64,000 bases of DNA from Pseudomonadota bacterium (GTDB lineage: Bacteria > Pseudomonadota > Gammaproteobacteria > Burkholderiales > Casimicrobiaceae): the NCBI GenBank assembly GCA_018241785.1, contig JAFEDF010000239.1, forward strand, positions 26,144 to 90,143. Direction: 5' to 3'. The notes below the pieces were generated by a model. That model saw only the letters and a list, made by a program, of their open reading frames with translations. It made no database searches and was not told the DNA's origin. The position numbers and the translations under genes are program-made. Positions within the stretch are counted from its first letter, which is position 1, and each line of letters starts with the position of its first letter. Shown here piece after piece: positions 19,286 through 27,390 of this stretch.

Positions 19286-19651
19286 TTACGCGCCCGTGCG
19301 CGGCAGCATGGGCCCGAGGCGATCGGGCCCGCCGAGAATGTGCACGTGCACATGCATCACGTCCTGGCGCCCGACGTGGCCGGTGTTGACGATGGTGCGA
19401 AAACCGTTGCCGGCACCCTGCTCGCGCGCAAGCTTCCCGGCGAGCGACAGGATGCGCCCCAGCGCCGGAGCATCTCCCGGGACCGTGTCGTAGAGCGTCG
19501 GAATGTGGCGCTTGGGCACCATCAGGAAGTGCACCGGCGCCCACGGCTGGATGTCGTGAAACGCGATGATCTCGTCGTCCTCGTATACCTTGCGGCTGGG
19601 AATCTCGCCGCGGATGATCTTGCAGAACACGCAGTTCGGATCGTCAGCCAT
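19286..19651 (-). CDS. Histidine triad (HIT) nucleotide-binding protein
   Basis: [12 protein letters not shown] and HIT motif HVHVHIL. Confidence 0.95.
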
Positions 19652-19705
19652 GCCGGAGCCTGTCAATGCCATCGTCGGTCAGCCCGGTACGGGAGGTGCC
19701 GCGCA

Positions 19706-20095
19706 TCAGCGGCGGCTCGCCTTCTCCGCGTGGCCGGAAACGCCCTCCCGCCGGGCGAGTTCCGCCAGGACGTCGGCGGGACCCAGGCCGTGGCGCGCGA
19801 GAAGCACGAGGCAGTGAAACCAGAGATCGGCGACCTCGGCGGCAATGCGAATCTTATCACTGCCCTTGCCGGCGATGACCGTCTCGGTCGCCTCCTCGCC
19901 GATCTTCTTCAGGATCGCCTCGTCGCCCTTGGCGAACAGCGACGCGACGTACGACTGGCGCGGATCGGCGTGCTTGCGCGTCTCGATCGTCGCGGCGAGG
20001 CGCTCGAGCACGTCGCACGCGGCCTCGCTCGGCCCGCGGGCGCCTGAACCCGCAGCGCCCCCGGCGTCGCCCGCCCTGCGCTCACTCGTGGCCAT
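19706..20095 (-). CDS. hisE: Phosphoribosyl-ATP diphosphatase
   Basis: [31 protein letters not shown]. Confidence 0.95.
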
Positions 20096-20480
20096 AGACC
20101 GTGACCGGATCCTCGAGCACCGGCTCGACGACGTGCCACTGGCCGCCTTCCAGCCGGTGGTAGAAGCAGCGCTCGCGCCCCGTATGACAGGCGATGCCGC
20201 CGACCTGTTCGACCGCGAGCAGGATGGTGTCGCGGTCACAGTCGAGGCGGATCTCGCGCACGCGCTGGACGTGCCCCGAGCGCTCGCCCTTGTGCCACAG
20301 CTGCGCACGCGAGCGCGACCAGTAATGCGCCTCGCGCGTGGCCTCGGTCAACTCGAGCGCCTGCCGGTTCATCCAGGCGAGCGTCAGCACGCGGTGGGTC
20401 GCCGCATCCTGCGCAATCGCCGGAACGAGCCCGTCGGCGTTCCAGCGCACGGCGTCCTGCCAGGCGGTCTGTTTCGCCAT
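20082..20480 (-). CDS. hisI: Phosphoribosyl-AMP cyclohydrolase
   Basis: [32 protein letters not shown]. Confidence 0.96.
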
Positions 20481-20482
20481 CG

Positions 20483-21244
20483 TCAGTCCCGCACCTCGAT
20501 GCCCGCCGCCCTCATCGCCGCCTTGGCAGCGCCGATCGTGTATTCGCCGTAATGAAAGATCGAGGCGGCAAGGACCGCGTCGGCCCCGCCCTCGACGACG
20601 CCGTCGACGAGGTCGGCGAGCGAGCCGACACCCCCCGACGCGATCACCGGCACGTCGACCGCATCGGCGACCGCGCGCGTCAGCTTGAGGTCGAAGCCGT
20701 GACGTGCGCCATCGCGATCCATGCTGGTGAGCAGGATCTCTCCCGCACCCTGTGCGACCACTTCGCACGCCCAGTCGACGGCGTCGATGCCGGTCGGCGT
20801 GCGCCCGCCGTGGATCCACACCTGCCACTGGTCCACCGCGCACTTCCTGGCGTCGATCGCCGCCACGATGCACTGCGCGCCGAAGCGCTCGGACGCGGCG
20901 CGGAACAGCGTCGGATCACGCACGCCCGCGGTGTTGATGCTGACCTTGTCGGCGCCGGCGTTGAGCAGCGCGCGGATATCGTCCAGCGTGGCAACCCCGC
21001 CGCCGACCGTGAGCGGAATGAACACCTGGTCGGCGACCGCCTCGATCATGCCGTAGAGGAGGCCGCGCGACTCGACGCTCGCGCGAATGTCGAGGAAGGC
21101 GATCTCGTCGGCGCCCTCGGCGTCGTAGCGCCGCGCCGTCTCGACCGGATCCCCCGCGTCCTTGAGGTCGACGAAGCGGATCCCCTTGACCACGCGCCCG
21201 CCGGCGACGTCGAGGCAGGGAATGACGCGCCTGGCGAGGCTCAC
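20483..21244 (-). CDS. hisF: Imidazole glycerol phosphate synthase, cyclase subunit
   Basis: [43 protein letters not shown]. Confidence 0.98.
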
Positions 21245-21978
21245 GCCGCGCCCTTCGCGGCCTTCAGCGCTTCCCTGAAATCGAGGCGCCCCTCGTACAG
21301 CGCACGCCCGGCGATCGCGCCGATGATGCCGTCGCCCTCGTGGAGCAGCAGGTCGTGGATGTCCTTCAGCGACGCGATGCCGCCGCTCGCGATCACCGGC
21401 GTCTTCACCTCGCGCGCGAGGCTCACCGTGGCGGCGATGTTGACTCCGGTGAGCATGCCGTCGCGGCCGATGTCGGTATAGATGATCGCCTCGACGCCGT
21501 AGTCCTCGAACTTGCGCGCGAGGTCGACGACGTCGTGGCCGGACATCTTCGACCAGCCGTCGGTCGCCACCTTGCCGTCGCGCGCGTCGAGCCCGACGAT
21601 GATGTGGCCGGGAAACGCGTAGCAGGCGTCGTGCAGGAGCCCGGGATTCTTGACTGCGGCGGTGCCGATCACCACGAAGCTGATCCCGTCGTCGAGGTAG
21701 CGTTCGATGGTGTCGAGGTCGCGAATGCCGCCACCGAGCTGTACCGGAACGTCGTCGCCGACCACGCTGACGATCTCGCGGATCGCGAGCTCGTTCTTCG
21801 GCCGCCCCGACACGGCCCCGTTGAGATCGACGAGATGCAGGCGCTCGGCGCCGAGCTCGAGCCAGTGCTGCGCCATCGCGGCGGGATCCTCCGAGAATAC
21901 CGTCGCCGCCTGCATGTCGCCCTGGCGCAGGCGCACGCAGTGGCCGTCCTTGATGTCGATCGCGGGGATGATCTGCAT
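21241..21978 (-). CDS. hisA: ProFAR isomerase
   Basis: [42 protein letters not shown]. Confidence 0.98.
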
Positions 21979-22037
21979 GTCGGGAAGACAGCGCAGGGGA
22001 CGCAACGCGAGGGCGCTCGAGCGCCTCGAGGGGTGGT

Positions 22038-22676
22038 CTAGGAACGCGGGTCCCAGGTCACGAAGTTCGCGAGCAGCCGCAGGCCGGCGCGCTGGCTCTT
22101 TTCCGGGTGGAACTGCACGGCGAAGATATTAGCCTGCGCTATGGCGCAAGTAAACGGCGACGCGTAGTCGGTCGTGCCGGCGGTGACGGCAGGATCGGCC
22201 GGCACCGGGTGGTAGCTGTGCGCGAAGTAGAAGCGCGCGCCGTCCGGAATCCCGCTCCACAGCGCATGCGGCATCGTCTGGCGGACCCGATTCCAGCCCA
22301 TGTGCGGGATCTTGAGGCGCTCCCGCGCCGGCGTCACGAGATCGGCCTCGCGAAAGCGCCGGACCCTCCCCGGCACGACCCCGAGGCACTCGGTCGGGCC
22401 CTCCTCGCTCATGTCGAAGAGCACCTGCAGTCCGAGGCACACGCCGAGAAACGGCCGCTCGCGAAGCGCCTCGACCACGGCGTCGCGCAGGCCCGAACGC
22501 ATAAGCCCCGCCATCGTCCCGGGCATCGCGCTCTGGCCGGGCAGCACGACGCGCGCCGCGGCGCGGATGTCGGCCGCGTCCGACGTCACGACGATCCGCT
22601 CGCGCGGAGCGACGTGCGCGAGCGCCTTCGCGACCGAGCGCAGGTTGCCCATCCCGTAGTCGACGACGGCCAGCAT
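22038..22676 (-). CDS. hisH: Imidazole glycerol phosphate synthase, glutaminase subunit
   Basis: [33 protein letters not shown]. Confidence 0.97.
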
Positions 22677-22705
22677 GTCCGGGGACCTCGCGCCGTCCGC
22701 GCCTT

Positions 22706-23323
22706 CTACAGGCTGCCCTTCGTCGACGGCACCGCGGCGCCCGCGCGCGGGTCGCGCTCGCACGCGACGCGCAGCGCGCGCGCAAACGCCTTGAACACCG
22801 TCTCCGCCTGGTGGTGGGCGTTGTCGCCGCGAAGGTTGTCGAGGTGGAGCGTCGCCATCGCGTGGTTGGCGAAGCCCTGGAAGAACTCGTGCACGAGATC
22901 GACGTCGAAGCCGCCGACGAGCGCGCGCGTGAACGGAACGTGGAACGTGAGCCCGGGCCGGCCGGACAGATCGATCACCGCGCGCGACAGCGCCTCGTCG
23001 AGAGGGACGCAGGCGTGGCCGTAGCGGCGGATGCCGCGCTTGTCGCCGAGCGCCTGCCGCAGGGCGTCGCCGATCGCAATGCCGGCATCCTCGACCGTGT
23101 GGTGGGCGTCGACGTGAAGGTCGCCCTTCGCGCGCACTTCGAGGTCGAGCATCGCGTGGCGCCCGACCTGGTCGAGCATGTGGTCGAGGAACCCGATGCC
23201 CGTCGCGAGCTGCGTATGCCCGGCGCCGTCGACGTCGAGCACGACCTCGATGTCGGTCTCCGCCGTGCGCCGCGCAACCCGCGCCGTGCGGTGCGCAGCG
23301 GTGGTGTCGAAGGGTGCGTTCAT
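22706..23323 (-). CDS. hisB: Imidazoleglycerol-phosphate dehydratase
   Basis: [36 protein letters not shown]. Confidence 0.98.
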
Positions 23324-25743
23324 GGTTTCCGTGACAGGGCCGCGATCAGCGCATCGTTCTCCGCCGCGGTGCCGACCGTGATGCGCAGGCAGTTGGCGAG
23401 GAGCGGGTGCGCGCCGTGGACATTCTTCACCAGGATGCCGGCCTCGCGCAACGCCGTCGAAGTCGCGCCTGCGTCCGCAACGCGCACGAGGACGAAGTTG
23501 GCCTCGCTCGGGAACACGCGCACGCCGGGGAGCGCGGCGAGCGCCGCGGCGAGGCGAGCGCGCTCAGCGCGCACCGCCGCCGCCTGCTGCGCGAACGGCG
23601 CCGGGTCGGCGAGGAGCACCGTCGCGGCGGCCTGGGTGAGCGCGTTGAGGTTGTAGGGCGAACGCAGCGCGTCGAGCGGGCGCGTCCATGCGCGGTCACC
23701 GACGGCGTAGCCGAGGCGCAGGCCGGCCATGCCGGTCTTGGAGAGCGTGCGCAGCACGAGCAGGTTGGAAAACCGCTGCGCGCGGCCGAGGATCGACTCG
23801 CGCGCGTAGGCGCAGTACGCTTCGTCGACGACGACGAGGCCGGGTGCAGCGCGCAGGATCCGCTCGATCGAGTCGCGTGGAAACAGCGTGCCGGTCGGGT
23901 TGTTGGGCGACGCGAGCCAGACGAGCGCCGGGTGCTCGCGCGCGATCGCAGCGAGCATCGCTCCGACGTCGAGCTCGAGGTCGGCATCGAGCGGGACACC
24001 GACGTAGCGCACCCCCGCGTGCTTCGCGTAGATCGCATACATGACGAACGTCGGCTCCGGCGCGAGCACCACGGCGCCCGGCCGCGCGACCATCGTCGTG
24101 ATGAGCTGGATGAGCTCGTCCGAGCCGTTGCCGAGCACGAGCCCCGTCGCGTCGGCAAGGCCGAGCGTCGTGCGGAGCGCGCCCTGCACGGCGTCGGCGC
24201 CGCCGTCCGGGTAGCGATTGAGCGGGATCGCGGCAAGGGCCGCGGCGAGCGCCGGACGCAGCGCGTCGGGCAGCGCGAATGGGCTCTCGTTCGCGTCGAG
24301 CTTGATCATCGACCCGGCTTTCGGCACCGCGTAGGCGGACATCGCGAGGACGTCCTGTCGCACCGTGCGGGCGGCAACCGCCGCGGCATCGCGCGCGACG
24401 GCGTCGTCGCCGAGCGGGGTCGCAACCGGCTTCGCCGCCCGCGCTTCGGCCGAGCGCGCGTGCGCGACGAGCCCCTCGCCTCGCGCCAGCGTCGACGCGA
24501 TTCCGGCGAGCACGCCTGCCGTGGCGGAGTTGATGCGCAGGATGCTGCTGCGCTTCTGGAAATCGTGGACGCCGAGCGGCGACGAGAAGCGCGCCGTGCG
24601 GCCGGTCGGCAGCACGTGGTCGGGCCCGGCGCAGTAGTCGCCGAAGGCTTCGCAGGCATGATGGCCAAGGAAGATCGCTCCGGCGTGACGGATCTTCGGC
24701 AGCAGGGCGTCGGGGTCCGCCACGGCGAGCTCGAGGTGTTCGGGAGCGATCCGATTGGCGATCGCGCAGGCCTCGTCGAGGTCGCGCACACGGATGAGCG
24801 CACCGCGGTGTGCGACCGACGCCGCGATGATCGCCGCACGCGGCATTTCGGCGACGAGGCGCGCAGCGCTCGCCGCGACGCGCTCGATCAGCCCGGCATC
24901 GGGGGTGACGAGAAGCGCCTGCGCGAGCTCGTCGTGCTCGGCCTGCGCGAAGAGGTCGAGCGCGACCCAGTCGGGGTTCGCAGTCGCGTCGGCGAGGACG
25001 AGGACCTCCGAGGCCCCCGCGACCATGTCGATGCCGACGGTGCCGAACACGCGGCGTTTGGCGGCCGCCACGTACGCGTTGCCGGGGCCGCAGATCTTGT
25101 CGACCGGTCGAATCGTCTCGGTGCCATAGGCGAGTGCGGCGATCGCCTGCGCGCCACCGATCGCGAACGCCTGCGTGACACCAGCAAGGTGCGCCGCGGC
25201 GAGCACCAGCGGGTTGCGCTCGCCGCCCGGGGCCGGCACCGCCATGACGATCTCGCGCACCCCGGCGACCTGGGCAGGAATCGCGTTCATCAGCACCGAC
25301 GACGGGTAAGCCGCCTTGCCGCCTGGAACGTAGATGCCGGTGCGATCGATCGGCGTCACGCGCTGGCCGAGCGTGCTGCCCTCGGCGTCGCCGAGCACGA
25401 ATTCGCCCCCGCGCTGGTGCTCGTGGAACTCGCGGATCCGGTGCGCCGCGGCGGCGAGCGCCTCGCGCATCGGCGCGGGGAGCGCGTCGTGTGCGGCATG
25501 CATCGCATCGGCGCCGATCGCAAGCCCGGCGGCCGACGCGACGGTGTGACGATCGAAGCGCGCCGTGTATTCGACGAGCGCGGCGTCGCCGCGGCGGCGC
25601 ACGTCGGCGATGATCGCGGCGACGACACGGTCGACTTCGGGGTCCTGCGCGGCTTCGAAGGCGACGAGCTGCCCGAGCGCGGCGTCGAAATCCGCCGCCG
25701 ACGAATCGAGCCTGCGCCACGCGAGCGGCGACGCCGTGGTCAC
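23320..25743 (-). CDS. hisD-hisC: Fused histidinol dehydrogenase / histidinol-phosphate aminotransferase (HisD-HisC), 807 aa
   Basis: GTG 25743 overlaps the hisG stop. HisD motifs (YVPGGKA, QAEH, APEHL, HVLPT, HARSA) continue without a stop into HisC (KLDANE, GNGSDE, SPNNPTG, VDEAY, RTLSK..GLRLGY). Confidence 0.92.
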
Positions 25744-26408
25744 CGTCCGGCCCCGGCGGCGCCCCGCGCCGCGACCGCCGCCTCGATCGCGTCGTGCACC
25801 GGCTTCACCTCGGCACGCCGGAGCTTCAGCGCGGCCGGATTCACGATCAGCCGCGAGCTGATCGGCATGATGTCCTCGACGGCGACGAGGTCGTTGGCCT
25901 TGAGGGTATTGCCCGTCGACACGAGATCGACGATCGCATCGGCGAGTCCCGCGAGCGGGGCGAGCTCCATCGAGCCGTAGAGCTTGATCAGGTCGACGTG
26001 CATCCCCTTCGCCGCGAAGTGCTCGCGCGCCACCCGCACGTACTTGGTCGCGACGCGGATGCGCGCGCCGCGCTGCACGCTGTGCGCCCAGTCGTAGCTC
26101 CGGTGCGCCGCGACCACGAGCCGGCAGCGGCCGATGCCGAGGTCGACCGGCTGGTAGAGCCCGTCGCCGCCGTGCTCCAGCAGCACGTCCCGTCCGGCGA
26201 CACCCAGAGCGGCCGCGCCGTACTGGACGTAGGTCGGGACGTCGGTGGCGCGCAGCACGACCACCGACGCGCGTGCGTCGGAGGTCGCGAGGATCAGCCT
26301 GCGCGACGAGCGCGGGTCCTCGACCGGAACGATCCCCGCTTCGGCCAGGAGCGGCAGCGTCTCGTCGAGAATGCGCCCCTTGGACAGGGCAATGGTGACG
26401 GTAGGCAT
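25740..26408 (-). CDS. hisG: ATP phosphoribosyltransferase, short form (HisZ-dependent type)
   Basis: [39 protein letters not shown]; 222 aa with no C-terminal regulatory domain. Confidence 0.96.
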
Positions 26409-26447: not shown

Positions 26448-26488
26448 TAGTGGGTCGCCGCAGCGGGCCCGCGGCGCAGTGCACCGGG

Positions 26489-27328
26489 TCACTGGCGCGG
26501 CGTGCGCACGTTCGGCGGCGGCGGAGCTCCGGCGTTGCTGCGAAACGGGTTGATCTCGATGCCGCCGCGGCGCGTGAAGCGCGCGTAGACGGAAAGCACT
26601 GCCGGGCGGCAGCGGCGCATGACGTCGACGAAGATGCGCTCGACGCAGTGCTCGTGGAAGCCCGGATGGCGGCGATACGACACGAGGTAGCGCAGGAGGC
26701 CCACGCGGTCGATCGGCGGCCCGCGGTAGGCGATCTGCACCGAAGCGATGTCGGGCTGCCCGGTCACCGGGCACACCGAGCGGAACAGGCGGGTGACGAG
26801 GGTCTCGGCCGTTTCGGCGCCGTGCGCGCCGAGCGACGACGGATCGACGTCGTAGCGGTCGCAGTCGGCGTCGAGGGCGTCGATCGACTCGCCGGCGAGC
26901 TCGCGCATCGCGAGCGCCGCGAATTGCTCCGGTCCTGCCAGCGTCACCGCAACCGCCGCACCGGCGACCCGCGCGAGGTCGGAGCGCAGGACTGCGGCGA
27001 CCTCGGCGGCCGATCGCCACTGCGTCTGCGCGAACGAGCCGAGGTAGAGCTTCATCGACTTCGACTCGACGATCGACGGCGAATCGGCGGGGACCTCGAT
27101 CGTCGCCAGCGCGACCTGCGGCCGGCCGCCCGAACCGAGCCAGGTGAGCTCGTAGGCGGTCCACTGGTCGCAGCCGCCGAACGGCAGCTCCGCACCGATG
27201 CCGATCGCCTCGCGCTGCGGCGCGCGCGCGATCGCGAACAGCGCGTCGGGTGCGTAGCGGTCCGGGTACCCGGTTGCGCGGCCGAGCGGCGAGCCGTCGA
27301 GTGCGGCGGCGGGATCCGGCGGGCTCAT
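26489..27328 (-). CDS. queF: NADPH-dependent preQ0 reductase (long, type II QueF)
   Basis: [14 protein letters not shown], catalytic [33 protein letters not shown]. Confidence 0.96.
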
Positions 27329-27390
27329 CGTTGAGCGGCGGACTCGATCATCGGTGAGCGGCAGCTTTGCCGGGCGACGCGGCGCCCCGG

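Follow-up and report, generated by a model that had tools for sequence, protein, structure and literature searches.

A natural in-frame hisD-hisC gene fusion in a genus of Casimicrobiaceae, probably formed at an overlapping operon junction

Reviews of fusions among the histidine-biosynthesis genes list hisIE, hisNB, hisHF/HIS7 and HIS4; the hisIE fusion arose several times, and hisC is absent from the seven his genes that are given as fusion-prone in the same work (PMC1963479). The joining of hisD, whose product catalyses steps 9-10 of the pathway, to hisC, whose product catalyses step 7 (PMC8305728), has its closest precedent in a laboratory fusion of Salmonella typhimurium (Yourno, Kohno and Roth 1970, Nature 228:820), which is placed among the first enzyme fusions in the citing passages of two later papers (PMC6563810 ref. 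21, PMC9141793 ref. 94). In this study, we analysed a natural counterpart, the fused gene hisDC, in a stretch of 64,000 nucleotides (nt), referred to here as the window, from a Casimicrobiaceae metagenome-assembled genome (MAG; GCA_018241785.1, contig JAFEDF010000239.1, positions 26,144 to 90,143). Both fusions contain the same two enzymes in the same order, with HisD at the N-terminus and HisC at the C-terminus. The laboratory fusion was made by frame-changing mutations that removed the hisD stop at the boundary of the adjacent operon genes, and it reportedly kept both activities. While the Salmonella fusion was selected in the laboratory, hisDC is natural, fixed in a clade and kept through a synonymous divergence (dS) of about 0.5, and its connector has since evolved by in-frame insertions and deletions (indels). 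Fungal HIS4 (HisI-HisE-HisD) and bacterial hisIE and hisNB are likewise natural multifunctional fusions of the histidine pathway, but with different partners, and the steps joined in hisIE are consecutive, while the HisN step lies between those of HisC and HisD. No description of a natural hisD-hisC fusion was found in open-access papers and bioRxiv. The sequence-only reading of this DNA likewise knew the combination mainly as an engineered Salmonella fusion; in nature, the fusion recurs in related Burkholderiales lineages.

hisDC occupies positions 23320..25743 (all window coordinates given here refer to the minus strand) and runs from a GTG start through 807 codons to a TGA stop. Its translation is free of stops and contains both enzyme families at full length, which confirms the in-frame fusion of 807 amino acids that had been proposed for these positions, and across the junction it reads without a stop and with the same letters as reported before. 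The HisD (histidinol dehydrogenase) domain comprises residues 1-435 (24439..25743) and is matched by PF00815 Histidinol_dh at residues 32-435 (profile positions 6-410 of 411, 532 bits, E 1e-159) and by TIGR00069 hisD at residues 41-435 (profile positions 1-393 of 393, 503 bits against a cut-off of 244). The HisC (histidinol-phosphate aminotransferase) domain comprises residues 462-807 (23323..24360) and is matched by PF00155 Aminotran_1_2 at residues 479-803 (profile positions 3-361 of 361, E 8.5e-54) and by TIGR01141 hisC at residues 462-804 (profile positions 1-347 of 349, 322 bits against a cut-off of 277). Judged by these scores, the domain matches far exceed what chance long open reading frames (ORFs) of a genome of 72% G+C would give. 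The raw open frame extends further upstream to position 26484, where the extra stretch is hisG read out of frame. A protein 100% identical to the hisDC product (P0002) is present in a public protein collection. Solved structures cover either the HisD part (best relatives, residues 5-436) or the HisC part (residues 457-805), and no solved chain spanning both domains is found among the structure matches to the protein.

Both catalytic sets are intact, as the sequence-only reading had it. Across 60 fused proteins the HisD residues Q267, H270, E335, H336, D369 and H428, which we take to be the counterparts of E. coli Q259, H262, E326, H327, D360 and H419, are invariant, as are N614, D640, Y643, S668-K669 and R676 of HisC, with K669 of the RTLSK motif being the lysine that binds pyridoxal phosphate (PLP). 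The source genome, a MAG of 3.49 Mb in 262 contigs that is 99% complete, contains no HisD homologue other than the HisD part of hisDC. It does contain a stand-alone HisC paralogue, HisC2, at C44:4682-5659 (locus L002; 347 bits on TIGR01141), which sits in a pheA-hisC2-tyrA arrangement between a chorismate mutase/prephenate dehydratase gene on one side and a prephenate dehydrogenase gene on the other; HisC2 also occurs in the 33 unfused relatives, belonging to 18 families, for which all matches are listed. We consider it highly probable (roughly 0.85) that hisDC is a genuine, heritable gene fusion which encodes one bifunctional polypeptide, where translation as one chain and the activity of both enzymes are what we infer from the sequence.

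The fused frame is not confined to the window. Among 121 species of the same Casimicrobiaceae genus, four (G000, G092, G014 and G100) possess a stop-free fused frame, and the fused proteins of the latter three are 81-84% identical to that of the window. The same frame is found in the metagenome proteins P0003 and P0004, the latter with nine further cluster members of 805 amino acids from NCBI, ENA, JGI and Logan; close relatives of the source genome are soil MAGs. The connectors of the four fused species differ in sequence and in length, and the distance between the GLxxH and KLD codons amounts to 168 nt in the window and to 162, 231 and 213 nt in the other three species, all of which are multiples of 3. 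The connector of G100 (locus L013) holds the tandem repeat ATEVH ATEVH ATEA, which shows that the linker grew through small duplications that kept the frame. Within the fused clade, the ratio of nonsynonymous to synonymous divergence (dN/dS) is 0.12-0.20 for HisD and 0.22-0.31 for HisC at dS values of 0.17-0.55, so that both domains are under purifying selection. Since these ratios remain low at such dS values, the fusion has been kept through substantial divergence. At the junction, dN reaches 0.24-0.43 compared to 0.04-0.12 in the domains, so that amino acids of the connector change 3 to 6 times faster.

The unfused members of the genus reveal how the junction is likely to have formed. In these, the hisD stop and the hisC start share a 4-nt ATGA or GTGA overlap (loci L006, L008 and L011). 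In G002 and two near relatives, the unfused sisters (L006, L080 and L083), the GLxxH-to-KLD distance is 170 nt with a frame offset of 2, which places hisC in the -1 frame, and the window junction is thus 2 nt shorter. In trees of the concatenated domains, the fused clade receives a support of 100 and is sister to the unfused G002 with a support of 99, while the fused clade and G002 together are nested among unfused members of the genus. By this placement, the fusion originated within this Casimicrobiaceae genus. We propose that in the ancestor a 4-nt ATGA overlap of hisD stop and hisC start supported translational coupling, and that, at this overlap or close to it, a net of 2 nt was lost, which abolished the stop and brought hisC in frame with hisD; taking two bases out of ATGA would let the HisD frame run on into codon 2 of hisC. 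The net loss explains the fusion because the junction of the closest unfused relatives is exactly 2 nt longer. A frame change at the hisD/hisC boundary like that of the Yourno fusion may have been the cause; since the junction has diverged, only the net length difference and not the individual fusing mutation can be read at the nucleotide level. The exact mutation is therefore inferred, whereas the net 2-nt difference and the phylogenetic position are observed.

The junction of the window protein (residues 436-461, 24361..24438) aligns without gaps with the HisD tail and the HisC N-terminus (MNDPRPQRLAVADREVAARIGATVR...) of the unfused sisters. The product predicted from a 2-nt loss, AEVRRDR followed by NDPRPQRLAVADREVAARIGATVR, likewise aligns gap-free with the window connector. 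By these alignments, what resembles a linker is the end of the HisD tail together with the native N-terminal arm of HisC, with no foreign linker added. In an AlphaFold2 model built with a 60-sequence alignment, both domains are confident (mean predicted local distance difference test score, pLDDT, of 87.5), pLDDT falls below 50 only at residues 440-445, and a helix at residues 447-460 belongs to the HisC arm. The disordered part of the junction covers approximately residues 437-446 (24406-24435), and the floppy connector is predicted to be only about 10 residues long. With a predicted template modelling score (pTM) of 0.57, the model does not fix the orientation of the domains relative to each other.

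Other junctions within the genus show further variation. In some species, an ORF of 102 amino acids with an EthD domain (PF07110, E 1.8e-12) lies between hisD and hisC (L009:1178-1483, minus strand; L010:1173-1478, minus strand; L082:2826-3131, plus strand), and because of this insertion the hisD/hisC junction can be regarded as a rearrangement hot spot. At locus L014 (G131:C7, a long-read MAG of the same genus), hisC starts at an ATGA overlap (MNARTPGLVD...) and then undergoes an apparent frame shift after a CCCCC run, so that a single TGA precedes a hisC that shares the frame of hisD. This could be an indel introduced in assembly or a natural intermediate on the way to fusion.

A false deletion of 2 nt, introduced in sequencing or assembly of the MAG, could in principle have joined two separate genes. 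The source genome is after all a MAG of many contigs, and at least one related long-read MAG (G131) seems to carry an indel near its hisC start. Yet such an error would have to be repeated in four species and in several independent metagenome contigs from NCBI, ENA, JGI and Logan, each time with a varied linker and each time in frame, and it would leave unexplained why both domains are under purifying selection; on the strength of this conservation, we regard an artefact as effectively refuted, with a practically negligible probability. It is scarcely more credible that the fusion is decaying, with one domain, most plausibly HisC, being non-functional while HisC2 does its job. Such a scenario draws on the presence of a second HisC-family gene above the hisC equivalog cut-off, but the HisC domain evolves at the low dN/dS given above and has kept every invariant residue of the PLP site, while HisC2 belongs to an aromatic amino-acid cluster and is found in unfused relatives as well. 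Cleavage of the chain in its flexible connector after translation, which would release separate working HisD and HisC as from a polyprotein, is very improbable, too: a floppy and fast-evolving connector of about 10 residues is the type of linker that is accessible to proteases, but the linkers are not conserved and hence offer no conserved cleavage motif, and the operon contains no dedicated protease gene.

The points that weigh against our interpretation of hisDC concern mainly its translation. Besides the long fusion, a free HisC of about 340 amino acids could be produced from an internal start at ATG468 (or GTG461 or ATG479). All four fused species keep ATG468 within the motif LAMS[AP]Y, AGGA, GGAG or GAGG is found 8-10 nt upstream of it, and the NCBI pipeline annotates a HisC-only product of 343 amino acids in a cluster mate of at least 90% identity. 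In addition, HisC2 could in principle back up the HisC activity, and, regarding the origin of the fusion, the same lengths would result from a +1 insertion with subsequent in-frame deletions as from a net loss of 2 nt. On the other side, the anti-Shine-Dalgarno pairing of ATG468, at -4.6 kcal/mol, lies within the background of the in-frame starts of the gene. The purine-rich stretch is accounted for by a conserved Asp/Glu codon, which the unfused relatives share, other fused HisC N-termini likewise have a Met here, and a product starting at residue 468 would be devoid of the HisC N-terminal arm, an arm that can still be aligned with its counterpart in the unfused relatives. The four in-frame start codons near the junction (GTG461, ATG468, GTG473 and ATG479) show pairing energies of -0.5 to -6.2 kcal/mol, compared to a mean of -3.7 and a best value of -9.0 kcal/mol for the 40 in-frame starts found throughout hisDC, and no Shine-Dalgarno signal above this background was found at the internal starts. 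The earlier list of internal candidates, one GTG and one later ATG, has to be extended to these four starts. We consider such dual output unlikely and retain the single bifunctional chain as the preferred interpretation.

As a bifunctional enzyme, hisDC would act on both sides of a step carried out elsewhere. The C-terminal HisC domain would convert imidazole-acetol phosphate into histidinol phosphate. This would be dephosphorylated by HisN, a separate enzyme whose gene lies on a different contig, and the N-terminal HisD domain would then oxidise histidinol to histidine. Because the HisN step lies in between, direct channelling between the fused domains is unlikely. By fusing, the operon would have exchanged translational coupling for an obligatory 1:1 synthesis of HisD and HisC, and since hisC lost its own start context, the fusion would be hard to reverse once fixed. 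It is probably near-neutral or mildly useful rather than a channelling device. An improbable alternative is an adaptive instead of a neutral role, in which the two obligate homodimers, held by a short tether, assemble into a defined D2C2 particle or an open polymer that recruits free HisN into a three-enzyme complex at the end of the pathway. If true, this complex would prevent histidinol phosphate, histidinol and the reactive histidinal from entering the free pool, and such an adaptive assembly would explain the repeated fixation of the fusion in several Burkholderiales lineages.

Outside the genus, we scored 400 other genomes of the order, with at most 10 per family, and 399 other genomes of the class. 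The order sample contains one other true fusion (G036), and the class sample of 399 genomes none. In approximately 34 genomes of the order sample, hisD and hisC lie in the same frame with 1-3 stops between them, and about 10% of the class sample contain in-frame hisD/hisC pairs parted by stops. The many full-length matches in both samples are interrupted by 1-3 in-frame stops and hence unfused. Same-frame unfused pairs of this kind (e.g. L004, L016-L033 and the Pseudomonas loci L075-L084) make up about 10% of the sampled Burkholderiales and Gammaproteobacteria genomes and, as their sequences stand, would require one or a few point mutations to fuse.

In the family of G036 (f13), approximately 45 of 172 species are fused, with near-universal occurrence in three genera (9/10, 11/14 and 3/4). 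Further fused records come from two Rubrivivax sp. MAGs, one uncultured Burkholderiaceae MAG and two further betaproteobacterial MAGs, and in a collection of 5.8 billion protein clusters, at least 120 clusters are fused, and their connectors are diverse and of low complexity. Fused genes from two lineages occupy the same operon slot in the same gene order. The fusions of f13 and of the Rubrivivax sp. and betaproteobacterial MAGs resemble hisDC in architecture, in operon slot and in having a low-complexity connector, with 30-60 residues separating GLxAH from KLD, but are only 54-58% identical to it and fall outside the Casimicrobiaceae clade. We conclude that they represent separate events, since the nearest members of that clade are unfused. 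Within Casimicrobiaceae, the metagenome proteins P0005, P0006 and P0007 are fused and branch next to unfused genomes, and well-supported branches require that the fusion state changed at least five times, where singleton contigs among these three proteins could be sequencing errors. The overall picture is that of a rare, recurrent mutation that is sometimes fixed and is helped by the tight hisD-hisC junction. The question of the sequence-only reading whether the architecture is already common and described receives a divided answer, as it is common in some Burkholderiales lineages, namely in about a quarter of the species of f13, while no paper describing it was found.

A single ancient origin, as would follow from a large all-fused clade in a first tree, was rejected in favour of family-level genome counts, since the database proteins in that tree had been chosen by length and were all fused, rendering the clade a sampling effect. 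An alternative genetic code (TGA read as Trp) behind false fused database proteins was rejected as well, because no Trp is found at the stop position and the linkers are diverse. Two loci from MAGs labelled 'uncultured Streptomycetaceae bacterium' (L096 and L101) carry hisD/hisC 66-68% identical to the Casimicrobiaceae genes and branch among Burkholderiales; their bins are probably mislabelled or contaminated.

hisDC exemplifies an ordinary process, whereby genes adjacent in an operon fuse, in a form that has gone unremarked, and does not amount to a new kind of biology. Nature has here repeated the first experimental gene fusion, and the ancestral ATGA overlap, the minimal net 2-nt mutation and the later evolution of the linker are all readable from living relatives. 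This makes it a clean case for teaching and research on how operon neighbours become multidomain enzymes and on whether fusions of this type are adaptive or simply difficult to undo. The fusion is also systematically mis-annotated: near-identical fused genes are publicly annotated as a HisC alone of 343-363 amino acids, as a 'partial' HisD or as a 'hypothetical protein' (HET7261965.1, MET0508482.1, MET0506754.1 and RIK93760.1), and the name 'histidinol dehydrogenase' is also in use. Because pipelines mishandle the fused gene, hisD or hisC can be wrongly counted as absent when pathways are reconstructed from these soil and wastewater MAGs.

The operon around hisDC has the canonical order murA-queF-hisG-hisDC-hisB-hisH-hisA-hisF-hisE-type ORF-HIT-tatA/B. 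Upstream, hisG (25740..26408, PF01634) encodes a short form of 222 amino acids without the regulatory C-terminal domain, and the TGA that ends it overlaps with the GTG at which hisDC starts (GTGA, in GGTGACC). Downstream, hisB (22706..23323, PF00475 IGPD) encodes imidazoleglycerol-phosphate dehydratase only, without the phosphatase domain, and its ATG start overlaps the TGA stop of hisDC (ATGA, in the context CCATGAAC). hisH, hisA, hisF, the hisE-type ORF and a HIT-family gene follow at 19289..22679 (Pfam GATase, His_biosynth twice, PRA-PH and HIT), where the hisE-type ORF encodes a phosphoribosyl-ATP pyrophosphohydrolase (PRA-PH); tatA/B lie further downstream. In agreement with the earlier observation, no hisN is found within the 64-kb window, and a HisN candidate of the inositol-monophosphatase type is located on contig C163, with a score of 274-275 bits right at the cut-off of 275.15. 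Between murA and hisG, queF (26492-27334, QueF_N and QueF) encodes 7-cyano-7-deazaguanine reductase; it holds this position in this clade, also in L038, whereas the equivalent locus of another Burkholderiales lineage (L037) lacks it. hisZ, which short-form HisG requires, is present at C147:55656-56585 with 278 bits, above the curated cut-off.

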